This document shows positions 1-10,963 of a stretch of DNA of 10,963 nt, one piece after another (the stretch's first letter is position 1; the number at the start of each line of letters is the position of its first letter). Made by a program: the position numbers and the translations under genes. The notes under the pieces were generated by a model, which ran no database searches, was not told the DNA's origin, and saw only the letters and a list, made by a program, of their open reading frames with translations. Location of the stretch: the IMG/VR virus record IMGVR_UViG_2617270976_000014, positions 1 to 10,963 of that record. One strand, written 5' to 3'. This stretch comes from a virus (lineage: Duplodnaviria > Heunggongvirae > Uroviricota > Caudoviricetes).

Positions 1-1734
1 ATGAAAGAAAAAAAATTCGTTAGTGAGCTTTTCCTTGAAAATGGGCAGTTTATTTTAGTCGGTTTGACAGGTCGAACTGGTTCTGGTTGCACAACAACAG
101 CTAATATTCTTGAAAACGAAAAAACAGTCTTCCCTGATGTAAGTAAATTACAGGGGTTTTACAAGGGATTGGATGTCCATCGTTATAATATAGTTAAAAA
201 ATTCGCAGAAAATCACTGGGAAAATTTTTACTCAATTAAGGTGAGTGACCTAATCTCAGCGTATCTTCTGATGTTAACAGTTGAGGAAGCTTCTGAATTC
301 ATTCTATCATCTAATAAATTTATCAGTAAAGAGCATTTAGATATTGTATTAACTTTTGGTGTATTCTCAGATAATCTCATTTTGACAAGATTTAAAAATG
401 TAATTGAGAATTTGCTTGATCATAATAGTGAATTGAAGTTTGATAAAAAAACGATTAATAAATTTATATCAATTTTGAAGTTAGTTAGAAAATTTACTAA
501 AGAATTCAAAGCTGAACTAAATGAGATAAACTCAAATTTATATGTTTCAGCCTATCAGTTAGCAGGTAAGTCAATTAGACGTCGTGGGCGTATTGAAGTC
601 GATTTTGAAGATAAAGAGTTTATGCCTAAATCTGTTTTTCATTTGCCGGAAACTATTAATAGGGTTATTAAATTAATAAGAAAAAGCAAAAGAGATAACG
701 CATTAATTGTCATAGATGCTATTAGAAATCCATATGAGGCAAAATTTTTTAAGGATAGATATTCTGCATTTCATTTAATGTCAATAAATGCCCCAGATGA
801 ACATCGAACAAACTATTTGCGGAAACTACATAAGTTTTCAGAAAAGCAGATAGAGGAAATAGATTCTGTAGAGTCAGGTAAAGGTGATAACTCTTACAAA
901 CATCTCACCAATCCAAATGTAACTAAATGTATTGAACTATCAGATATACACATTTTTAACCCAAAAAATGAATTTGATAATGACAATATTTTAAAAGCAC
1001 AATTAGCGTGGTACATCGCACTGATGAAGCATCCTGGTCTGATAACACCTACTGCAATGGAAAGGGTTATGCAAGTTGCGTATACGGTAAAATTAAACTC
1101 TGGCTGTATATCTAGACAGGTGGGAGCTGTAGTAACTGATGGTGATAATTCAATAAAATCAGTTGGTTGGAATGATGTTGCCAACGGTCAGATTCCTTGC
1201 TCTATGAGATCTCTAGATGGCCTAATGAACGATTTTGATGAAAAAACGTACAGTCATTATGAGAGAAATAATAGTTCTTTCAGAATTAAAGCTAATGAGA
1301 AACTCTTAAATTTTAGGGCGATAGATAAAACTGGTGATATTTATAGAGGCAGGAACTTATCTTATTGTTTTAAAGATATACATAATGATCTTGATAAAGA
1401 GAAAAAAGGTAATCAAGTTCATACACGTGCATTACATGCTGAGGAAAACGCATTTTTACAACTTGCAAAATATGGTGGTATTGGCGTTCTGGGGGGGAAG
1501 TTGTATACAACTGCCAGTCCCTGTGAGTTGTGTGCGAAAAAAGCTTATCAGTTAGGTATATCTGAAATTGTATTTATTGATCCCTACCCAGGTATAGCTC
1601 AAGACCATATTATTAATATAGGTAGTAAGCCACCAAAGTTAATACAATTTAGAGGCGCAATTGGGAAGTCATATCACCGACTTTATGAGCAAATTATCCC
1701 GATAAAAGATGAGTTAGAATATCTCCTTGAGTAG
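1..1734 (+). CDS. P-loop kinase-like / cytidine (dCMP) deaminase fusion protein, AvcD/DcdV-type dCTP-deaminase antiphage protein-like (577 aa)
   Basis: Uninterrupted 577-codon ORF starting ATG at 1, stop TAG 1732-1734. N-terminal glycine-rich loop GLTGRTGSGCTT (Walker-A-like, Cys where the Lys is expected). C-terminal zinc-deaminase signature HAEENA...PCELC (HxE plus PCxxC). About 30% GC, unlike the adjacent prophage. Upstream region lies outside the window. Confidence 0.7.
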   Translation: MKEKKFVSELFLENGQFILVGLTGRTGSGCTTTANILENEKTVFPDVSKLQGFYKGLDVHRYNIVKKFAENHWENFYSIKVSDLISAYLLMLTVEEASEFILSSNKFISKEHLDIVLTFGVFSDNLILTRFKNVIENLLDHNSELKFDKKTINKFISILKLVRKFTKEFKAELNEINSNLYVSAYQLAGKSIRRRGRIEVDFEDKEFMPKSVFHLPETINRVIKLIRKSKRDNALIVIDAIRNPYEAKFFKDRYSAFHLMSINAPDEHRTNYLRKLHKFSEKQIEEIDSVESGKGDNSYKHLTNPNVTKCIELSDIHIFNPKNEFDNDNILKAQLAWYIALMKHPGLITPTAMERVMQVAYTVKLNSGCISRQVGAVVTDGDNSIKSVGWNDVANGQIPCSMRSLDGLMNDFDEKTYSHYERNNSSFRIKANEKLLNFRAIDKTGDIYRGRNLSYCFKDIHNDLDKEKKGNQVHTRALHAEENAFLQLAKYGGIGVLGGKLYTTASPCELCAKKAYQLGISEIVFIDPYPGIAQDHIINIGSKPPKLIQFRGAIGKSYHRLYEQIIPIKDELEYLLE

Positions 1735-1765
1735 AAATATTATACTCATCCTTCCTGAGGTAAGC

Positions 1766-1799
1766 TTCAAGATGATCAATAAATATTGATCATCTTGAA
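1766..1799. repeat. Perfect 16-bp inverted repeat (TTCAAGATGATCAATA-AA-TATTGATCATCTTGAA) with two GATC sites, 32 nt after the deaminase stop
   Basis: Read directly from the sequence; the arms are exact reverse complements with a 2-nt spacer. Could be a terminator hairpin or a protein-binding site. Confidence 0.8.
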
Positions 1800-2114
1800 A
1801 GTTAATTGCAGAGTCAAACTAGTAGTCAGACTGAAGCTTCGATAAAAAATGTTTTTGTTTTTTTCATTTTCTAATGACTGTTTTTTATTAGTTTCTTTTT
1901 AATGTTGCAATGCTATGCTTTTCTACTATTTTTGAATGTGGCATCTTTGATGTTTTTATACAACAAAGATGAGGGCTTATAGGTTTTTTTGTGATGTAAA
2001 AATTATCTTATTCTATAAATAAAACCTAAACTCAGTCTGAAGAGTTAAATGAGAATGGATAACCTGCTGAATATTATATTTGTAAATAGTTTGAGTTTGT
2101 TTTCATAAGTTACT

Positions 2115-3131
2115 CTATCTTAAGTTGCATAAAGGGTTTTTAGTTACCGCATCTTCAAGGTGATCGGGCGAAAAGTGGGCGTAAATCATCGTCATTTTTA
2201 TATCGGCATGGCCCAGAATATCGCGCAGCACCAGTATGTTTCCGCCATTCATCATAAAATGGCTGGCGAATGTATGACGTAGCACGTGAGTGCATTGGCC
2301 CTCTGGCAGCTCGATGCCAGCTCGCTTTACTGCTCGTTCAAAGGCTTTTCTGCACGGGGTGAATAGCTTCCCTCTGTTCTTGGGGAGTTCGTCATACAGA
2401 TCTTGAGATATCGGCACGGTGCGGTTTTTCTTACCCTTCGTCTTGGTATAAGTGATGCGGTATTTAGATAACTGATGGCCCTGCAGGTTTTCAGCTTCAC
2501 TCCAGCGTGCGCCGGTGGCCAGGCATATTTTTGCAATCAAAAGCAGACTGGGGTTTTGAGAATCAGCGCAGGCATCTAGCAGACGTTTAATTTCTTCCGA
2601 GGTCAGGAACGCCAGTTCCCCCTCAGCGATTTTAAATGTTGGCAGCCCGGCGAGAGGATTTGGTGCTGACCAGTGGCCTAGTTTTTTCAATGTGCCGAAA
2701 ACCGATGATAGGTTACGTTGCTCAAGATTCACCGTGCGTGGTTTTACTGGCGACATTAGTGTGCCGTCTTCGTTACGAACGTCACCTTTTAACCGTGCTT
2801 CGCGGTATTTCGTAAAGTCACCGGCTGTCAGTTCTGAGGCGATGGGGTCGCCTAGACCATTACAGATAATTCTAAGTTTCGCCATGAGGCGCTTGGGGTC
2901 TGCGAGTGTCTGACCATACAGGGAATACCAAAGCTCAATTAATTCTGATAGGCGTCGCCGATCATCCTTTTCACCCAACCACGGTTTTTTATTCACTTCT
3001 TCCATTGTGAAGCTTTCAAAAGCAATGGCTTCGCCTTTCGTAGCAAATTGCTTACGCACGCGCTTACCATTGCGTCCATTGGGATAGCACTCACACAACC
3101 ATTTTCCGTTCGGCTGTTTTCTGATGGTCAT
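2115..3131 (-). CDS. int: Tyrosine recombinase, P2/186-family phage integrase (338 aa)
   Basis: N-terminus MTIRKQPNGKW...YPNGRNGKRVRKQF is P2-family-like. C-terminal catalytic residues in context: ATGARWSE (Arg), HVLRHTFAS (His-x-x-Arg), MIYAHF (Tyr). Its start lies 1 nt after the stop of the upstream repressor gene (TGA-T-ATG on the minus strand). Confidence 0.9.
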   Translation of the reverse strand: MTIRKQPNGKWLCECYPNGRNGKRVRKQFATKGEAIAFESFTMEEVNKKPWLGEKDDRRRLSELIELWYSLYGQTLADPKRLMAKLRIICNGLGDPIASELTAGDFTKYREARLKGDVRNEDGTLMSPVKPRTVNLEQRNLSSVFGTLKKLGHWSAPNPLAGLPTFKIAEGELAFLTSEEIKRLLDACADSQNPSLLLIAKICLATGARWSEAENLQGHQLSKYRITYTKTKGKKNRTVPISQDLYDELPKNRGKLFTPCRKAFERAVKRAGIELPEGQCTHVLRHTFASHFMMNGGNILVLRDILGHADIKMTMIYAHFSPDHLEDAVTKNPLCNLR

Positions 3132-3132
3132 A

Positions 3133-3765
3133 TCAAAGGCTCTTAATGATTTTCAGTGCGCGGCCTACTACCTCAATGTCATCTAGGCCACACTCAAACG
3201 ATGAATCATCCTGATGCACTACTAATTTGTTTCCCGGAAGTCGAGTCAATTTAACAATGCTTTTTATCCCGTCAATATCGACTAACCACATACCATTTAC
3301 TGGTGGTGTTTGGTTGCGATCTATTAAATAAGAATCACCAGAAGTAGTCACCAGCAGTAGGTTGCTTGAGTCTGAGGGGAGTATGCTGCTATCAATGATT
3401 GCTTTTCCAGCATCGACCAATAAACCACCGTTGAGAGTCGCCTTGTCAATTTCAGGAGATACTAGTTCAGAAAGAGGTACAACCTTGCTGGAGTTCACGG
3501 AATTGATATTTTTTTTAGGTTCAATGTTTGGACCTGGCTCCCCCTGTCCGGTGGTTAGCCACAGTAAAGAAACTCCTGTTTCCAAGGCGCACTGAATCAC
3601 CCACTCTGCAGGAAAACTATCTCTTAAGTATCTGTTTGCCATGGTGCTTTTTGATGCGCCTAAGTGATCGCAAAGTTGCTGTCTGGACTTGAAATCATAG
3701 GCTGCCATTAGTCTATGGATAGCCTCTCTTCCCCCTGTATTCTCTCCAACCTTTACCTGTATCAT
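3133..3765 (-). CDS. cI: CI-type immunity repressor, phage 186-like (210 aa)
   Basis: Sits directly upstream of int on the same strand and divergent from the early operon. HTH-like segment SRQQLCDHLGASKSTMANRYL near the N-terminus. Size and position match 186 CI. Confidence 0.7.
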   Translation of the reverse strand: MIQVKVGENTGGREAIHRLMAAYDFKSRQQLCDHLGASKSTMANRYLRDSFPAEWVIQCALETGVSLLWLTTGQGEPGPNIEPKKNINSVNSSKVVPLSELVSPEIDKATLNGGLLVDAGKAIIDSSILPSDSSNLLLVTTSGDSYLIDRNQTPPVNGMWLVDIDGIKSIVKLTRLPGNKLVVHQDDSSFECGLDDIEVVGRALKIIKSL

Positions 3766-3884: not shown

Positions 3885-4127
3885 ATGAGCACTGATATTT
3901 CAATTCGTGTACCAAAAGAGATGGCTACGCCTGCAGAGTTCGCGGAATGGGAAGGTATCTCCCGCGGCTCTGTGTATCAAAAAATTCATCATGGTCAGCT
4001 TGCTAAATACATGGTCAAGAAAGAAAAAAACAAAGGCCGCGTAAGCCTGCGTTATTTAATGTACAAAACCGATCAGGTCCGTGAATCCCTCGGTCATTCC
4101 AACTTCCGCGTCATTGTTGGTAAGTAA
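3885..4127 (+). CDS. Apl/Cox-like small DNA-binding protein (excisionase / switch regulator), 80 aa
   Basis: First gene of the rightward operon, immediately after the switch region; RBS GGGAGA upstream of the ATG; size and position match 186 Apl / P2 Cox. Confidence 0.55.
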   Translation: MSTDISIRVPKEMATPAEFAEWEGISRGSVYQKIHHGQLAKYMVKKEKNKGRVSLRYLMYKTDQVRESLGHSNFRVIVGK

Positions 4128-4159
4128 GTTCAATTATGAGAACTTTCTAAGGGGGTAGC

Positions 4160-4669
4160 ATGTTTGATTATAAGATTTCCAAACACCCGCATTTTGATGA
4201 AGCCTGTAGAGCTTTTGCACTTCGTCACAATATGGCGAAGCTGGCAGAACGTTCAGGAATGAATGTCCAGACTCTGCGAAACAAACTCAACCCAGATCAA
4301 CCGCATCAGCTCAATGCGCCAGATATCTGGCTACTTACCGATCTGACGGAAGATTCAACGCTGGTAGACGGTTTTCTGGCACAGATTCACTGCCTGCCAT
4401 GTGTACCGATTAATGAGGTGGCAAAAGAGAAACTGCCACATTACGTCATGAGTGCAACCGCAGAGATCGGGCGTGTTGCTGCAGGTGCGGTATCTGGCGA
4501 TGTAAAAACCAGTGCAGGTCGTCGTGATGCTATCAGCAGCATTAACTCTGTTACACGACTGATGGCGTTAGCTGCTGTTTCATTGCAGGCCCGTTTACAG
4601 GTTAATCCTGCGATGGCAAGTGCAGTTGATACTGTAACCGGCCTCGGTGCTTCATTCGGTTTGCTGTGA
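4160..4669 (+). CDS. cII: CII-like transcriptional activator (169 aa), phage 186 CII-like
   Basis: RBS AGGGGG 6 nt upstream of ATG; 169 aa, the length I recall for 186 CII; HTH-like segment MAKLAERSGMNVQTLRNKL; second gene of the early operon. Confidence 0.6.
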   Translation: MFDYKISKHPHFDEACRAFALRHNMAKLAERSGMNVQTLRNKLNPDQPHQLNAPDIWLLTDLTEDSTLVDGFLAQIHCLPCVPINEVAKEKLPHYVMSATAEIGRVAAGAVSGDVKTSAGRRDAISSINSVTRLMALAAVSLQARLQVNPAMASAVDTVTGLGASFGLL

Positions 4670-4676
4670 GGTGCTT

Positions 4677-4877
4677 ATGCTGACGAAAGAACCATCATTT
4701 GCATCGCTGCTGGTAAAACAAAGTCCGGCAATGCACTACGGTCACGGCTGGATCATGGGTGAGGATGGTAAACGCTGGCATCCGTGCCGTTCACAAGATG
4801 AATTGCTGGCAGAACTATCTACGAAAAAACGGGGGAACAAATGGCTATTGAAGGCGCTGCGGCGACTGTTCCATTAA
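4677..4877 (+). CDS. Small early protein of unknown function (66 aa), at the position of 186 fil
   Basis: ATG at 4677 preceded by GAGGTG RBS that overlaps the cII stop; the ORF-track start at 4647 is likely an upstream extension. Confidence 0.4.
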   Translation: MLTKEPSFASLLVKQSPAMHYGHGWIMGEDGKRWHPCRSQDELLAELSTKKRGNKWLLKALRRLFH

Positions 4878-5182
4878 GCCCCGGTGAACGCCTGAATGGA
4901 CTTAATCACATAGCGGAATTAAGGGCGAAAGTTTTTGGCCTGAATATTGAGTCAGAGCTTGAGCGGTTTATTAAAGACATGCGTGATCCACGGGATATCA
5001 ATAACGAACAAAATAAACGAGCACTGGCAGCCATATTCTTTATGGCAAAAATTCCGGCTGAACGTCATAGCATCAGCATCAATGAGCTGACCACTGACGA
5101 AAAGCGGGAGTTGATTAAAGCAATGAATCATTTTCGTGCAGTGGTGAGCTTATTTCCCAGACGGCTAACCATGCCGAATTAA
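4841..5182 (+). CDS. Hypothetical phage early protein (113 aa)
   Basis: ATG preceded by GGGGGAA RBS; same strand as the operon; overlaps the 3' end of the preceding ORF by 37 nt in another frame. Confidence 0.45.
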   Translation: MAIEGAAATVPLSPGERLNGLNHIAELRAKVFGLNIESELERFIKDMRDPRDINNEQNKRALAAIFFMAKIPAERHSISINELTTDEKRELIKAMNHFRAVVSLFPRRLTMPN

Positions 5183-5249
5183 CCAACTAATGAAATTAAT
5201 GGCGTAAACCCGCCGAGCATCCCTTTATCTAAATTCAGGAGAATTGATT

Positions 5250-5483
5250 ATGCGTAATATTGAAATCCTCACGACTAAAACCGGACCGGATGATGCAGGG
5301 CTTAATATTTTACTGACAGAGGCTCGTCTGGAAGAACGCCGGGCAAGGGCTGAAGCAATGGCAGCTCGCCTTGATAGCCTGGCGTGTCATATCTCATCCC
5401 GTCAGCTAAACCACGTGGAAGCGGCAGAACTGCTGCGTGTGACTGCTGAAGCAATCCAGAACGAAGCGCAGGAGATCCACTAA
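5250..5483 (+). CDS. Hypothetical phage early protein (77 aa)
   Basis: ATG at 5250 preceded by AGGAG; its stop overlaps the next start (TAATG). Confidence 0.45.
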   Translation: MRNIEILTTKTGPDDAGLNILLTEARLEERRARAEAMAARLDSLACHISSRQLNHVEAAELLRVTAEAIQNEAQEIH

Positions 5484-5710
5484 TGGCTGATGCAATGGAT
5501 CTCGTACAGCAGCGCGTTGAAGAAGAACGCCAGCGCCATATCCGTGCTGCCCGTGCCAAAACACCGGGCGTGTCTCGCGTGCTTTGCATTGAGTGTGAAG
5601 CGCCAATTCCGCCAGCACGCCGCCGTGCCATTCCGGGTGTGCAGCTTTGCATTACCTGCCAGGAAATTGCAGAGCTGAAAGGCAAACATTACAACGTAGG
5701 TGCTGTATGA
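5483..5710 (+). CDS. TraR/DksA-family C4 zinc-finger protein (75 aa)
   Basis: Two CxxC pairs with the spacing of the TraR/DksA finger (CIEC...CITC); RBS AGGAGA; start overlaps the preceding stop. Confidence 0.75.
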   Translation: MADAMDLVQQRVEEERQRHIRAARAKTPGVSRVLCIECEAPIPPARRRAIPGVQLCITCQEIAELKGKHYNVGAV

Positions 5711-6564
5711 GCACCATCCTGAAATGGGCGGGAAATAAAACCGCCATTATGTCCGAACTGAAAAAACACCTTCCTGCTGGCCCGCGACTGGTTGAACCTT
5801 TCGCGGGTTCCTGTGCTGTGATGATGGAGACGGATTACCCCAGCTATCTTGTTGCGGATATTAATCCTGATTTAATCAACCTCTATAAAAAGGTTGCTGC
5901 TGATTGTGAGGCATTTATATCTCGTGCCAGAGCTTTATTTGAGGAAGCAAACAGGGAGGTGGCTTATTACAACATAAGGCAGGAGTTTAATTACTCCACT
6001 GAAATTACTGATTTCATGAAAGCGGTATATTTTCTGTATCTCAATCGTCATGGTTACCGTGGGTTATGTCGCTATAACAAGAGCGGGTATTTCAACATTC
6101 CCTACGGTAATTATAAAAATCCGTATTTCCCTGAAAAAGAAATTCGCGCATTTGCAGAGAAAGCCCAGCGGGCAACGTTTATCTGCGCCAGCTTTGATGA
6201 AACGCTGGCGATGTTGAAGGCGGGGGATGTGGTGTATTGCGATCCGCCGTATGACGGCACGTTTTCCGGTTATCACACTGACGGCTTCACTGAAGATGAC
6301 CAGTATCACCTGGCATCCGTTCTTGAACATCGGTCATCAGAAGGACATCCGGTCATTGTTTCTAACAGTGACACATCCCTGATCCGTTCGCTGTATCGCA
6401 ATTTTACTCACCACTACATCAAGGCAAAACGCAGCATCGGCGTAGCAGCTGGTGAGAGTAAATCTGCAACAGAAATCATCGCTGTTTCTGGGGCGCGCTG
6501 CTGGGTGGGATTTGATCCTTCGCGTGGCGTGGATAGTTCTGCCGTGTACGGAGTGCGTGCATGA
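5707..6564 (+). CDS. dam: DNA N6-adenine methyltransferase, Dam family (285 aa)
   Basis: N-terminal ILKWAGNK, AdoMet-binding EPFAGSCAV and catalytic DPPY (VYCDPPYDG) motifs; start ATG overlaps the upstream stop (ATGA) and its stop overlaps the start of gene A. Confidence 0.85.
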
Positions 6565-8975
6565 GCCATGCTGATATGAACAACTGCAGCGGCTTTAACG
6601 AGGCCGCCGCAGCATTCTCATGGGACAGCCCGAAAAAGGCTATTAACCCTTATCTGGATCCGGCAGAAGTTGCGCCGGTTTCTGCGCTTTCAAACCTGAT
6701 CACTCTGTACGCTGCCGATAACGAGCAGGAACAACTGCGCCGCGAGGCACTCAGTGATCAGGTCTGGGAGCGTTATTTCTTTAATGAATCCCGTGATCCT
6801 GTCCAGCGCGAAATGGAGCAGGATAAGCTCATTAGCCGGGCAAAGCTGGCGCATGAGCAGCAGCGTTTTAATCCGGATATGGTCATTCTGGCGGACGTCA
6901 ACGCCCAGCCTTCCCATATCAGCAAGCCGCTGATGCAACGTATTGAATACTTCAGCAGCCTGGGCAGGCCAAAGGCTTATTCCCGCTATTTGCGTGAGAC
7001 GATTAAGCCATGTCTGGAACGACTGGAGCATGTACGCGAGAGTCAGCTATCCACTTCTTTTCGCTTTATGGCAAGCCATGAAGGGCTGGACGGCCTGCTG
7101 ATCCTGCCTGAAATGAGTCAGGATCATGTGAAACGCCTGTCCACCCTGGTAGCTGCGCATATGAGCATGTGCCTTGATGCAGCTTGTGGCGATTTGTATG
7201 CCACCGATGACGTTAAGCCAGAAGAAATCCGCAAGACATGGGAAAAGGTGGCGGCGGAAACCCTGCGTCTGGATGTCATCCCACCTGCGTTTGAGCAACT
7301 CCGTCGGAAAAGAAACCGCCGTAAACCCGTGCCCTATGAACTCATTCCGGGTTCGCTGGCGCGTATGTTGTGCGGCGACTGGTGGTATCGGAAATTATGG
7401 AAGATGCGTTGCGAATGGCGGGAAGAGCAGTTGCGCGCTGTTTGCCTGGTCAGCAAAAAAGCATCTCCTTATGTCAGCTATGAAGCCGTGATGCATAAAC
7501 GTGAGCAGCGCCGTAAGTCGCTGGAGTTTTTCCGTTCTCATGAACTGGTGAACGAAGACGGCGACACGCTGGACATGGAGGATGTGGTAAACGCCAGCAG
7601 CAGCAACCCTGTGCATCGCCGCAATGAGATGATGGCCTGTGTTAAAGGTCTGGAGCTTATCGCGGAAATGCGCGGTGACTGCGCCGTTTTCTACACTATC
7701 ACCTGTCCGTCGCGTTTCCATTCCACGCTAAATAACGGCAGACCAAACCCGACCTGGACAAACGCGACGGTAAGACAAAGCAGCGATTATCTGGTCGGCA
7801 TGTTTGCTGCATTTCGTAAGGCGATGCACAAAGCCGGGTTGCGCTGGTATGGCGTGCGGGTGGCTGAGCCGCATCATGACGGCACAGTTCACTGGCACCT
7901 GTTGTGTTTCATGCGCAAAAAAGACCGCCGTGCCATCACTGCATTACTGCGTAAGTTTGCCACCCGTGAAGACCGCGAGGAGCTGGGCAATAACACTGGG
8001 CCGCGCTTTAAGTCTGAGTTGATTAACCCGCGCAAAGGAACGCCGACAAGCTACATCGCGAAATATATCAGTAAGAACATTGACGGTCGTGGTCTGGCTG
8101 GCGAGATCAGCAAGGAAACGGGTAAATCTCTGCGTGATAACGCTGAATACGTGAATGCCTGGGCGTCTCTGCATCGTGTTCAGCAATTCCGCTTCTTTGG
8201 TATTCCGGGGCGTCAGGCTTACCGTGAACTTCGCTTGCTGGCTGGTCAGGCGGCAAGGCAACAGGGTGACAAAAAAGTAGGTGCGCCGGTACTGGATAAC
8301 CCGCGTCTTGATGCCATTCTGGCTGCTGCTGATGCTGGTTGTTTTGCCACCTACATCATGAAGCAGGGCGGCGTACTGGTTCCCCGTAAATATCACCTCA
8401 TCAGAACCGCTTATGAAATCAACGAAGAGCCGACCGCCTATGGCGATCACGGCATTCGTATTTATGGCATCTGGTCACCCATTGCAGAGGGCAAGATCTG
8501 CACTCATGCAGTGAAGTGGAAAATGGTTCGTAAAGCCGTTGACGTTCAGGAGGCGGCAGCCGACCAGGGCGCTTGCGCCCCTTGGACTCGTGGCAATAAC
8601 TGTCCCCTTGCTGAAAATTTGAACCAACAAGGGAAAGACAAATCAGCTGATGGGGATACCAGGACGGACATTACCCGCATGGATGACAAGGAGTTGCACG
8701 ATTACCTGCACAGTATGAGCAAAAAAGAGCGCCGGGAACTGGCTGCAAGGTTACGCCTGGTGAAACCGAAACGGCGTAAAGACTACAAACAGCGAATTAC
8801 AGACCATCAGCGACAGCAGCTCGTCTATGAACTGAAGTCCAGAGGATTTAATGGCAGCGAGAAAGAGGTCGATTTACTCCTTCGCGGCGGCAGTATTCCG
8901 TCAGGAGCAGGCCTGCGTATCTTCTATCGGAACCAGCGTTTGCAGGAAGATGATAAGTGGCGAAACCTGTATTAA
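6561..8975 (+). CDS. A: Rolling-circle replication initiator endonuclease, P2/186 gpA family (804 aa)
   Basis: HUH motif (TVHWHLLCF) and paired catalytic tyrosines ([11 protein letters not shown]); size and position after the early genes match P2 A. Confidence 0.85.
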
Positions 8976-9067
8976 TTACGCGGGTTAACAATTCGTGCTC
9001 TTAATAATACCAGGCATATCAGGCTAATGAACGTAAAAAAACGTTTTACATCAGTAAGATTATTATA

Positions 9068-9087
9068 TACTGTAAATATAAACAGTG
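9068..9087 (+). promoter_or_regulatory. LexA (SOS) box TACTGTAAATATAAACAGTG
   Basis: CTGT-N8-ACAG with an AT-rich spacer, close to the consensus TACTGTATATATATACAGTA; lies 41 nt upstream of the ATG at 9129 and overlaps plausible -10 hexamers. Confidence 0.6.
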
Positions 9088-9128
9088 GTTATGCATACAG
9101 TATTGCTTGTGGTGTCATAGGAGGAAAG

Positions 9129-9317
9129 ATGCAGGACTATTTTTTGGAGTCTTTGAAGCTCCAGCGCATTGATTTTTTTCTTAAGCTTGTAGCGGCTAGT
9201 GAGTGTAGTGATGAAGAGAAGGGGCTGGCTTTGCAGTGGGTTTCTGAACTGACAGATGAACTCATGGCAAAAATCAGAACCCACGAATACAACCGCTCAA
9301 TGGATGTCATCAGCTGA
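9129..9317 (+). CDS. Small SOS-controlled protein (62 aa), possible Tum-like antirepressor
   Basis: Strong RBS AGGAGG before the ATG at 9129; LexA box just upstream; the position after A and next to a DinI-like gene mirrors 186 tum. No sequence match to Tum could be verified by eye. Confidence 0.4.
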   Translation: MQDYFLESLKLQRIDFFLKLVAASECSDEEKGLALQWVSELTDELMAKIRTHEYNRSMDVIS

Positions 9318-9327
9318 GGTGACCTTT

Positions 9328-9561
9328 ATGCGCATTGAAATAATGATCGATAAAGAGCAGAAGATTAGCCAGTCTACCCTGGACGCCCTTGAATCCGAGC
9401 TTTACCGCAATCTGCGCCCCCTGTATCCCAAAACGGTAATTCGCATCCGCAAAGGTAGCTCTAACGGTGTGGAACTGACCGGACTGCAACTGGACGAAGA
9501 AAGAAAACAAGTGATGAAGATTATGCAGAAGGTGTGGGAAGACGACAGCTGGCTGCATTAA
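9328..9561 (+). CDS. dinI: DinI-family protein (77 aa)
   Basis: MRIEIMIDKEQ...DALESEL...IMQKVWEDDSWL aligns by eye with E. coli DinI (MRIEV...DALAGEL...ILQETWESADDW); RBS GAGGTGA upstream. Confidence 0.75.
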   Translation: MRIEIMIDKEQKISQSTLDALESELYRNLRPLYPKTVIRIRKGSSNGVELTGLQLDEERKQVMKIMQKVWEDDSWLH

Positions 9562-9720
9562 GAAAAGTTGCTGGCGTCTGAACTTGGTTCTGGCGTCAGC
9601 AAGGTTGAACAACGAGTACAGTGAGGCGTTAGGTGTGGCGTTTATTTGATGAGTGAACGCCCGTTCTGCGACAGGTTCGGAGATTAAGGTTGAAACTACG
9701 GGCAAAATACCATCTTTTTC

Positions 9721-10146
9721 CTACTTAATTGAGTCCAGTAACAAGTTACAGTTACTCTCATTGTAGAGAGAACGAGCAATTAGTGTTACCTGCTTTCCAT
9801 TCATTCCCGGCTTATCCCATAACACAGCTTCTTGCGACGCCACAAATTCAGCATAATCAATTATGCGTTGTTCGTGATCTGGTTCCTCATAGCCAAAGTA
9901 TGAGAGCGCATCGTTGTAAGCGTGGTAAGCTGCTTTCTGTAATATCTTGATATCGGCTGTAGGTACTTGCTCCGTGTAGCTAGGATCTAATTGTGTGCTA
10001 CTGCCATAGAATGCACATGAAAGGTAAGATATTGATTTCTGTTGAGCTTTAGTTCCTTTCTCATAGTTTTTAGCTGTTACCGCCTGAACAGGGACGCTAA
10101 CAAAGCTTGCAACCAGAATTAAAATTAATACGTAAAAGCTTTTCAT
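9721..10146 (-). CDS. Secreted or periplasmic protein of unknown function (141 aa), likely prophage cargo gene
   Basis: N-terminal signal peptide (MKSFYVLILILVASFVSVPVQA, AxA-type cleavage site, no lipobox Cys); GAGG RBS 7 nt upstream; two Cys in the mature part; about 40% GC; opposite strand to the phage operon, between dinI and the cos-like motif. Confidence 0.6.
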   Translation of the reverse strand: MKSFYVLILILVASFVSVPVQAVTAKNYEKGTKAQQKSISYLSCAFYGSSTQLDPSYTEQVPTADIKILQKAAYHAYNDALSYFGYEEPDHEQRIIDYAEFVASQEAVLWDKPGMNGKQVTLIARSLYNESNCNLLLDSIK

Positions 10147-10419
10147 TTTGACCTCAGCCGAAACGTTAGAGAGACTATCGAAATTTGTAAAACCCGTGGC
10201 GATTCAGTTTGAGATCCTCCCCCTTACATGATTTTTAATCAAATATATGCTTTTGTAAGCATACCTGTTAACCGAATTATTTATTTTTAGAGATCTTCCG
10301 ACATACTGATTATGCCCGCTGAGGAGTTCACCTTGCGTAAAGTCCGATTCGCTTTACTCGTCTGTGCATGTCTATGCTGCATGAGATTGCATGATCGTTT
10401 GAGGATCGTTTTTGCTAAG

Positions 10420-10446
10420 GCCCGCCAGAACTGGCGGGCTTTTGCG
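10420..10446 (+). terminator. Rho-independent terminator (GCCCGCCAG-AA-CTGGCGGGC followed by TTTTGCG)
   Basis: GC-rich inverted repeat (8-9 bp stem) immediately followed by a T-run on the plus strand. Confidence 0.6.
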
Positions 10447-10488
10447 TAGATCATGCTCCTGCATGAAAACCACTACATAAAGCGGGCA

Positions 10489-10507
10489 GGCGTGGCGGGG
10501 ATACGAG
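10489..10507. other. Candidate cos site of a P2/186-family phage (GGCGTGGCGGGGATACGAG)
   Basis: The first 13 nt match the P2/186 cohesive-end sequence as I recall it (GGCGTGGCGGGGAAAGCAT for 186); position after the A-tum-dinI region is where cos is expected in an integrated prophage. Recalled from memory, not verified. Confidence 0.4.
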
Positions 10508-10632
10508 CGCGCGCTCATGGTTGAATTAATGAAATTATGGTGTTAAATAGGCTAGCTTTTTAAGTCGTGAATATTCAATTTTTCAACTCATTTTTTTCAT
10601 AGGGAGGAGTAATTGACATGGTTATGTTAGTG

Positions 10633-10963
10633 GGTGATGCTGCCAACTTACTGATTTAGTGTATGATGGTGTTTTTGAGGTGCTCCAGTGGCTTCTGTTT
10701 CTATCAGCTGTCCCTCCTGTTCAGCTACTGACGGGGTGGTGCGTAACGGCAAAAGCACCGCCGGACATCAGCGCTATCTCTGCTCTCACTGCCGTAAAAC
10801 ATGGCAACTGCAGTTCACTTACACCGCTTCTCAACCCGGTACGCACCAGAAAATCATTGATATGGCCATGAATGGCGTTGGATGCCGGGCAACAGCCCGC
10901 ATTATGGGCGTTGGCCTCAACACGATTTTACGTCACTTAAAAAACTCAGGCCGCAGTCGGTAA
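10633..10963 (+). mobile_element. IS1 insertion sequence, left end (IRL GGTGATGCTGCCAACTTACTGAT) continuing beyond the window
   Basis: Canonical IS1 left inverted repeat at 10633-10655 followed by insA; the window ends at the insA stop, so insB and the IRR are not visible. Confidence 0.9.
10688..10963 (+). CDS. insA: IS1 transposition regulator InsA (91 aa)
   Basis: GTG start; translation [40 protein letters not shown]... matches IS1 InsA as I recall it. Confidence 0.95.

Follow-up and report, generated by a model that had tools for sequence, protein, structure and literature searches.

The closest described relatives of the protein considered here are enzymes in which an N-terminal P-loop kinase-like domain is fused to a C-terminal deaminase. 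For the 576-aa version from E. coli AW1.7, both phage protection and depletion of dCTP have been demonstrated (Tal et al., Nat Microbiol 2022; preprint 10.1101/2021.04.26.441389), and both are lost in a kinase-motif mutant carrying G29A and C30A together, as well as in a zinc-site mutant carrying C370A and C401A together (10.1101/2021.04.26.441389). The methods of that preprint delimit the family as single proteins of >350 aa with a kinase-like N terminus and a deaminase C terminus, and the literature treats this “dCTP deaminase” family of Tal/Sorek as the same family as AvcD/DcdV. AvcD of V. cholerae (VC0175; 532 aa), likewise a fusion of a P-loop kinase to a dCMP deaminase, depletes the dC pool upon transcription shut-off and needs an upstream RNA of 152 to 174 nt; it carries a serine (Ser52) at the Walker A lysine position, and the S52K substitution inactivates it. 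The single-domain dCMP deaminases, such as T4 Cd (1vq2), the S. mutans enzyme (2hvv), and PBCV-1 bi-DCD (7fh4), are biosynthetic and are without the N-terminal kinase-like domain. With respect to genomic setting, the interval between int and att of P2-like prophages has been described as a minor defense hotspot that holds 3% of P2 systems (PMC13586616, NAR 2026) and is a locus separate from the classic P2 hotspot, which lies between gpA and gpQ (PMC9122126).

The window, by which we mean the entire 10,963-nt stretch of DNA that was analyzed, begins with an intact member of this already characterized family of anti-phage dCTP deaminases. Positions 1 to 1734 on the plus strand constitute a single ORF of 577 aa plus the stop codon, and its product, a kinase-like–deaminase fusion, falls within the >350-aa definition given above. 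It scores 425.5 bits against the NCBIfam equivalog NF041025, “anti-phage dCTP deaminase” (cutoff, 400), with aa 17 to 569 aligning onto model positions 1 to 437 of 437, and aa 9 to 573 are recovered by the PADLOC dCTP deaminase model PDLC02373 (E = 2.1e-145; 484 bits). The AW1.7 enzyme passes the same NCBIfam and PADLOC models and is 72% identical to the window protein over its full length. Further, the protein shows a full-length match to phrog_8118 of PHROGs (1310 bits), it is matched by Pfam PF00383, and the RefSeq name for the 99.9%-identical genes is “anti-phage dCTP deaminase.” These results bear out what the sequence-only reading had put forward from the ORF, its motifs, and its low GC content, namely a kinase-deaminase fusion of the AvcD/dCTP deaminase antiphage type. 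Comparison with six alleles, 0/6 of which contain stop codons, gave dN/dS values of 0.05 to 0.15 and shows the gene to be under purifying selection. A contig search that used this one protein as the query yielded a single, partial locus from Photobacterium, and no solved structure for the full-length family was found in the PDB.

Both folds are present in the protein, a P-loop kinase-like domain at approximately aa 1 to 340 and a zinc-dependent deaminase of the dCMP/dCTP type at approximately aa 345 to 577, and all of the residues defined by mutation in the AW1.7 enzyme are conserved. The P-loop GLTGRTGSGCTT (aa 21 to 32; positions 61 to 96, plus strand) lies in the predicted structure after a strand at aa 17 to 23 and before a helix at aa 29 to 38, and its segment from G21 to C30 is invariant in an alignment of 38 homologs. 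The sequence-only reading had correctly noted a cysteine in place of the Walker A lysine and had taken it as a hint that the domain might be a nucleotide sensor rather than an active kinase; the invariance of this Cys30, the loss of function in the G29A/C30A mutant, and the serine at the same position in V. cholerae AvcD mark it as a hallmark of the family rather than evidence of a locally degenerate domain. A strand with the sequence LIVIDAI (aa 234 to 240; positions 700 to 720, plus strand), modeled as a strand over aa 234 to 239 and invariant at V237, I238, D239, and A240 in the 38 homologs, is the putative Walker B element. In the deaminase domain, Cys369 and Cys400 (positions 1105 to 1200, plus strand), both invariant in the homologs, are the counterparts of AW1.7 C370 and C401, the AW1.7 numbering being one higher at this Cys pair according to the BLASTP alignment; together with G29 and C30, all four residues changed in the defense-negative AW1.7 mutants are thus kept. 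The catalytic zinc motif, HAE (aa 479 to 481) followed after 25 residues by PCELC (aa 507 to 511), occupies positions 1435 to 1533 on the plus strand, is invariant at H479, A480, E481, and P507 to C511 in the 38 homologs, and aligns with the active-site motifs of the dCMP deaminases of T4 and S-TIM5.

Thus, the AW1.7 enzyme and the window protein share the two domains, the GLTGRTGSGCTT P-loop, the Cys pair, and the HAE/PCELC motif. The likeness to VC0175, which we draw from its described features and not from a sequence alignment, extends to the fusion itself, to a HAE...PCxxC zinc site, and to a nonlysine residue at the Walker A lysine position (Ser52 and Cys30, respectively), whereas the spacing between HAE and PCxxC is 28 residues in AvcD and 25 in the window protein. 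The AvcD homolog of ETEC H10407 showed no blastn similarity to the window gene or to the divergent allele from LF82.

The sequence-only reading had placed the gene in an AT-rich island beside the prophage; the att sites put it instead within the prophage, with the attP arm on one side and int on the other. The element is a Fels-2-like P2-family prophage integrated at the 3' end of ssrA, and the deaminase gene is part of its cargo. The full ssrA gene is found at the ogr end (positions 12123 to 12485 of locus L002), and a 45-bp duplicate of the 3' end of ssrA (positions 8770 to 8814 of locus L001) lies 186 nt before the ATG of the deaminase gene; the window itself contains no tRNA or tmRNA. Downstream, the integrase gene (positions 2115 to 3131, minus strand) encodes a tyrosine recombinase of the Fels-2/SopEPhi/SEN8 type by ORF and RefSeq annotation and is followed by the gene for the CI repressor (positions 3133 to 3765, minus strand; PF07022/PF16452, RefSeq), the int-cI region being 81 to 89% identical in nucleotide sequence to Felsduovirus-type phages. 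An early operon, recognized by its ORFs and RefSeq annotation, runs from position 3885 to 8975 on the plus strand and encodes an Apl/Cox-like protein (positions 3885 to 4127), CII (positions 4160 to 4669), and the replication endonuclease gpA (positions 6561 to 8975), with Fil, DUF5347, DUF2732, TraR/DksA, and Dam methylase proteins between CII and gpA. The classic gpA-gpQ hotspot is found at about positions 9000 to 10630, where it holds an IS1.

The stretch between the deaminase gene and int (positions 1735 to 2114) is an AT-rich spacer. A perfect inverted repeat at positions 1766 to 1799, 32 nt past the stop codon, folds with an MFE of -30 kcal/mol (z = -4.92), which none of 200 shuffled sequences matched; a hairpin with a different stem sequence stands at the same place in the Citrobacter and Siccibacter versions, and it is probably a transcript-end hairpin between the convergent genes. 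The spacer is what is left, in degenerate form and on the minus strand, of another cargo gene (208 aa; phrog_21256), of which it represents the 5' half; in the Citrobacter and Siccibacter prophage versions this gene is intact. Alignment revealed homology to this gene over roughly the last 280 nt of the spacer, and blastn gave 68% identity over 226 nt to Siccibacter (L015) and no match to Citrobacter (L013); any ORFs left in the spacer are shorter than 27 aa.

The deaminase gene falls exactly in the int-att hotspot interval of PMC13586616, the text of which does not mention a dCTP deaminase or use the word “deaminase.” In other strains, the same slot holds divergent deaminase alleles (E. coli E1433 and G5) or a 506-aa gene of unknown function (strain 873.10), or it is empty (T28R); the 208-aa, 506-aa, and 141-aa cargo proteins gave no Pfam or PADLOC matches. 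Among 5426 complete E. coli genomes, only 38 have the gene, in every case within a mobile element. The family also has homes outside P2-like prophages: a serine-recombinase element in dusC, an ICE in LF82, and, in AW1.7, an integrase island at tRNA-Phe, where the 524-nt upstream region is unrelated to the 186 nt that precede the window allele. A tblastn search of the phage genome collection recovered no carrier (best identity, <31%), so mobilization of the gene in virions is something that we infer. Several of the carrier prophages have decayed, with shortened tail regions or an IS in NCTC9038 and E47 and the IS1 noted above in the window, and in such strains the gene is now effectively chromosomal.

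Taking these findings together, we consider it highly likely that the gene, carried as cargo in the int-att slot of a Fels-2-like prophage, specifies a functional member of the AvcD/DcdV family of anti-phage dCTP deaminases. By homology to the characterized members, from which we infer the activity, trigger, and defensive role of the window allele, the enzyme would be made in the lysogen and held inactive until a superinfecting lytic phage shuts off host transcription and thereby switches it on. The zinc deaminase (H479/E481/C508/C511) would then act on dCTP, and probably also on dCMP, to give dUTP and dUMP, and the resulting collapse of the dC pool would stall phage DNA replication; the P-loop domain at the N terminus, marked by the G29-C30 motif specific to the family, is predicted to be required for this defense. 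Since the gene travels with the phage, its action would amount to superinfection exclusion that benefits the prophage.

The DNA upstream of the gene was read in the 99.9%-identical genomes (186 nt in L001). Its att-proximal ~110 nt carry conserved tandem TGCCGCCA repeats and look like an integrase arm, and tandem pairs of TG[CT]CGCCA with an 11-bp spacing adjoin both att copies of the prophage. A promoter scan flagged nothing in the 186 nt. The best-conserved promoter-like element, singled out by eye on its conservation and falling below the scan threshold, is TAGAAT-17 nt-TATAAT, present in 3 of 5 alleles about 40 to 50 nt from the ATG.

Two alternatives bear on what the gene is and to which element it belongs. 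One is that it resides on a separate small chromosomal or tandem-integrated island that merely abuts the prophage, as its GC content would suggest (32.8% for the ORF versus roughly 49 to 53% in the prophage nearby). The emptiness of the slot in T28R, the occurrence of family members in non-P2 elements, and, in NCTC9038, a shortened second integrase and an IS just beyond the deaminase gene could be read in the same way. However, the ssrA att copy stands between that integrase and the deaminase gene, so that the integrase belongs to the next, CP4-57-like, element, and no further att copy was found between the deaminase gene and int, within 3 mismatches, or elsewhere in the window. Moreover, the arm-like repeats occur at both ends of the prophage, and the att-deaminase-int-cI order is the same in Citrobacter and Siccibacter, so that the linkage spans three genera, with similar divergence of the deaminase gene (85% nucleotide identity), int (84%), and the early genes (82 to 85%); we therefore regard a distinct island as very unlikely. 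A role in nucleotide metabolism, either as a housekeeping dCMP deaminase or in supplying a phage with dUMP for dTTP synthesis, is more improbable still, to the point of being hardly credible. It finds some encouragement in the C-terminal half, where the deaminase fold expected by the sequence-only reading is 26 to 31% identical to the T4, human, S. mutans, S-TIM5 cyanophage, and PBCV-1 dCMP deaminases and is also matched by the “dCMP deaminase” family phrog_174. Against it stand a score of just 36.4 bits for the ComEB model TIGR02571 (cutoff, 219.45), a protein three to four times longer than these enzymes, whose single domain spans about 140 to 190 aa, with a family-specific N-terminal domain, the sporadic distribution confined to mobile elements, and the 72% identity to a protein with demonstrated defense.

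A third alternative concerns regulation and would refine rather than contradict the preferred reading of a prophage-borne defense deaminase: the locus could be a type III toxin-antitoxin system of the AvcID type, in which a labile RNA of ~150 to 175 nt, encoded on the same strand immediately 5' of the gene, binds and inhibits the enzyme until its transcription is shut off by a phage. In V. cholerae, the 152- to 174-nt AvcI/DifV RNA is encoded immediately 5' of avcD, is cotranscribed with it, and is present in large excess; once transcription is shut off, the decay of this RNA activates AvcD (PMC10511110). The V. parahaemolyticus, P. mirabilis, and ETEC H10407 homologs also have functional cognate upstream regions, which share no sequence similarity. 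Further, the T7 escapers of the AW1.7 enzyme map to gene 5.7, an inhibitor of the host RNA polymerase, which fits a labile inhibitor, and because the clone of the AW1.7 gene included its own upstream DNA, an RNA was never excluded there (10.1101/2021.04.26.441389). The window gene offers little room for such an RNA: from the att core to the ATG there are only 186 nt, ~110 nt of these are arm-like, and the promoter-like element is close to the start codon; in other E. coli alleles, the noncoding space upstream varies from 57 to 524 nt. The sequence-only reading had supposed that any RNA partner would be encoded upstream of position 1, and of the available in silico tests, all of which are weak given the lack of sequence conservation among the known AvcI RNAs, none detected a structured or conserved counterpart there. 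Rfam matched only the tmRNA fragment in this region, a 189-nt upstream RNA folds worse than its shuffled versions (z = +1.48), and RNAalifold on five upstream alleles gave -3.78 kcal/mol with an unfavorable covariation term and no consensus structure. Weighing these points, we view an AvcI-like RNA as a possibility worth keeping in mind but a doubtful one.

The gene family, its mechanism, and the genomic slot have all been published already, and in these respects the locus adds little. It does provide a clean natural case of a dCTP deaminase carried between int and att by a Fels-2-like phage, seen in Escherichia, Citrobacter, and Siccibacter. With an upstream region that is too short, and too much occupied by the attP arm, for an obvious AvcI, it also makes a convenient construct for asking whether an RNA antitoxin is universal in the family. 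A more speculative and, in our estimate, unlikely proposal is that P2-borne dCTP deaminases work without an AvcI-type RNA and have their control tied to the integration state of the phage. As the DNA next to the promoter is that of the attP arm, everything upstream of the att core is swapped upon excision; the ssrA terminator and the chromosomal flank would be exchanged for ogr-side phage DNA, and binding of Int/IHF to the arm could gate expression of the deaminase. If this were true, the gene would be regulated differently in the lysogen, after induction, and during a new infection, and the phage could shield its own replication from its own deaminase.

The first 1,734 nt of the window (1-1734, plus strand) hold a single ORF of 577 aa, with its ATG at the very first base. 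As the sequence-only reading had described, it combines a P-loop-like motif (GLTGRTGSGCTT, aa 21-32), in which Cys30 occupies the Lys position of GxxxxGK[ST], with the zinc-deaminase motifs HAE (aa 479-481) and PCELC (aa 507-511). The proposed profile search of the two halves bore out the C-terminal one, where Pfam places a dCMP_cyt_deam_1 domain (aa 353-525, E=1.6e-14), whereas P-loop matches in the N-terminal half fell below significance (AAA_18, E=0.063). On sequence grounds, the family is settled by two curated full-length models, namely, the NCBIfam equivalog model NF041025, "anti-phage dCTP deaminase," which aligns end to end and whose cutoff of 400 bits is exceeded (425.5 bits), and the PADLOC model for dCTP deaminases (E=2.1e-145). 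A full-length PHROGs family, phrog_8118, also exists for the protein. The housekeeping dCMP deaminase (ComEB) was rejected as an identification, with its model reaching 36 of the 219 bits that its cutoff demands.

The same allele is present in 20 complete E. coli genomes in RefSeq at nucleotide identities of at least 97.4% (at least 99.6% in 7 of the 20), where it is named "anti-phage dCTP deaminase" (WP_032248869.1). Annotated family members occur in 38 of 5426 complete E. coli genomes, and thousands of relatives, many named alike, were found in a large protein database in Enterobacterales, Vibrionaceae, Pseudomonas, and others. Six E. coli genomes (e.g., SF-468, record positions 3915066-3915697) encode a "hypothetical protein" that matches parts of the deaminase domain at 73% identity in two stretches of 180-197 nt; these genes may represent a more remote or fragmentary relative.

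Among characterised homologues, the 576-aa protein of E. coli AW1.7 is 72% identical across its whole length and confers broad phage protection with dCTP depletion (10.1101/2021.04.26.441389). This identity, both models, and the RefSeq name uphold the core of the earlier interpretation, an antiphage deaminase that depletes dCTP. In AW1.7, the kinase-motif mutant G29A+C30A and the mutant C370A+C401A each lose both protection and dCTP depletion (10.1101/2021.04.26.441389); the equivalent G29, C30, C369, and C400 are conserved here and, like HAE and PCxxC, are invariant across 38 homologues. The Cys had been taken as a sign that the N-domain may be a noncatalytic sensor. It is indeed present, but because it is invariant in those homologues and the G29A/C30A double mutant lost defence, it is instead to be read as a hallmark of the family. 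The Vibrio cholerae relative AvcD differs in having Ser at this position, and its S52K mutation abolishes activity (10.1101/2021.03.31.437871). An AlphaFold2 model from a 38-sequence alignment has a mean pLDDT of 77 and a pTM of 0.70, with N-domain blocks mostly at 85-94; Foldseek searches with it agreed, more weakly for the N-domain, and structure searches recovered no solved structure spanning both domains. The dN/dS values against six alleles (0.05-0.15) point to purifying selection. The AvcD/AvcI pair that was experimentally tested in ETEC comes from E. coli H10407 (NC_017633.1); blastn of that genome with our gene or the divergent LF82 allele found no similarity, and hence what the literature calls "ETEC AvcD" is distantly related to the window allele.

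The gene is AT rich, as had been noted, with a GC fraction of 0.328 (0.271 in the spacer at 1735-2114) against 0.485, 0.438, and 0.532 in the phage genes int, CI, and gpA, respectively. Its placement as an island beside the prophage has to be revised. In E. coli NCTC9038, where base 1 of the window corresponds to position 9001 of locus L001 (the deaminase end of the prophage), the gene is followed by int, CI, Apl/Cox-like, CII, Fil, Dam, and gpA and then by the late genes up to ogr. Directly past ogr lies the full ssrA (tmRNA) gene (locus L002, 12123-12485, minus strand). At the other end, 186 nt 5' of the deaminase ATG, 45 bp of the ssrA 3' end are repeated (L001 8770-8814), with the original ssrA terminator behind them. 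There is no further att copy between the deaminase and int, and no tRNA or tmRNA in the window; thus, the gene lies within the att-delimited element. The int-cI region is 81-89% identical in nucleotides to Fels-2, SopEPhi, SEN8, and related Felsduovirus-type phages. Tandem pairs of the octamer TG[CT]CGCCA at 11-bp spacing adjoin both att copies outside the window (L001 8900-8918, at 8900/8911; L002 12056-12074, at 12056/12067), are conserved in five alleles, and probably serve the Fels-2-type integrase as arm-type binding sites, which would put the attP arm 5' of the deaminase. Since none of the deposited phage genomes carries the gene, its packaging in the virion is inferred. A truncated integrase past the att copy in NCTC9038 belongs to a neighbouring CP4-57-like element. 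Just past the att copy, E. coli E47 has an integrase and then a SIR2-family protein (L021 41650-44247), and Siccibacter colletis has an AAA_15/AAA_21 ATPase and an HNH protein (L015 620-2384); other likely defence genes thus cluster at this ssrA locus.

Linkage to the phage is old and extends across genera. In Citrobacter portucalensis and S. colletis, a protein 89% identical is encoded in the same arrangement: the ssrA att copy is followed after about 197 nt by the deaminase and then by int and CI. Nucleotide identity to these versions is 85% for the deaminase, 84% for int, and 82-85% for the early genes, a matched divergence as expected for codescent with the phage. Both also have, between deaminase and int, a 208-aa gene (phrog_21256; L013 5872-6498 in Citrobacter, L015 5874-6500 in Siccibacter) whose product has no Pfam or PADLOC match. 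It is a second predicted cargo gene of this slot, and, judged from sequence comparison, the AT-rich spacer 1735-2114 (minus strand) is its decayed 5' half. In E. coli E1433 and G5, 72-75%-identical deaminase alleles sit in backbones otherwise 83-98% identical, indicating allele swapping in the slot. In E. coli 873.10, an unrelated 506-aa gene takes the deaminase's place (L004 3459-4979; WP_000615103.1; phrog_14259); it has no Pfam or PADLOC match and is a candidate uncharacterised defence gene. The slot is empty in T28R and holds IS5 in TST3. Elsewhere, the AW1.7 family member lies in a tRNA-Phe island, that of LR-29-1 in a serine-recombinase element in dusC, and that of LF82 in an ICE. A 2026 survey of P2-like prophages explicitly counted the stretch between integrase and att as a minor hotspot of defence, with 3% of P2 systems (PMC13586616).

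Several other features of the window deserve mention. A perfect 14-16-bp inverted repeat (1766-1799), 32 nt past the deaminase stop, folds with an MFE of -30 kcal/mol (z=-4.9); the lack of a following T-run rules it out as a canonical intrinsic terminator. A hairpin at the equivalent spot in Citrobacter and Siccibacter has a different stem sequence. The prophage carries a Dam methylase ORF (5647-6564) typical of Fels-2-like phages and, just 3' of gpA, a DinI-family gene (9327-9560, plus strand; Pfam E=1.3e-22). The classic P2 gpA-gpQ hotspot holds a 141-aa ORF with a signal-peptide-like N-terminus, MKSFYVLILILVASFVSVPVQA... (9721-10146, minus strand; phrog_7437, of unknown function), without a Pfam or PADLOC match, and the left end of an IS1 (10633-10963; inverted repeat GGTGATGCTGCCAACTTACTGAT, insA from 10688) that runs past the window end. 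In NCTC9038 and E47, this hotspot holds other genes, including one for a DUF4145 protein. The IS1 and the truncated tail regions of NCTC9038 and E47 suggest that many carriers of the prophage are defective.

In V. cholerae, AvcD's RNA partner AvcI/DifV (152-174 nt) is encoded on the same strand as avcD, directly 5' of it, and is cotranscribed with it; its decay after transcription shut-off frees the enzyme (PMC10511110). The cognate regions of other AvcD homologues have no sequence similarity to AvcI. The sequence-only reading had expected such a partner 5' of position 1, DNA that could be read from identical genomes. There, Rfam matched nothing but a tmRNA fragment, the 189-nt upstream RNA folded more poorly than shuffled controls (z=+1.48), and in RNAalifold the five upstream alleles reached -3.78 kcal/mol, the covariation term being positive. 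Space is also scant: the att-proximal ~110 nt consist of arm-like repeats, and, of promoter-like elements, the one conserved best (TAGAAT, 17 nt, TATAAT; recognised by eye and under the promoter-scan threshold) is about 40-50 nt away from the ATG. While we thus found no positive evidence for an AvcI-like RNA, these tests are weak and the AW1.7 experiments kept the native upstream DNA (10.1101/2021.04.26.441389), so we regard such a partner as somewhat unlikely but still conceivable.

Taken together, the observation stands and was correctly interpreted at its core; it was already known in three respects, namely, the deaminase family, the name given to exactly this protein, and the int-att slot. 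From the homologues, we propose that the lysogen would make the deaminase in an inactive state and that infection by a lytic phage, with shut-off of host transcription, would activate it. The zinc site would then deaminate dCTP and dCMP, and the P-loop domain would be needed for this activity; the resulting collapse of the dC pool would stall phage replication. As phage cargo, the gene would act in superinfection exclusion.
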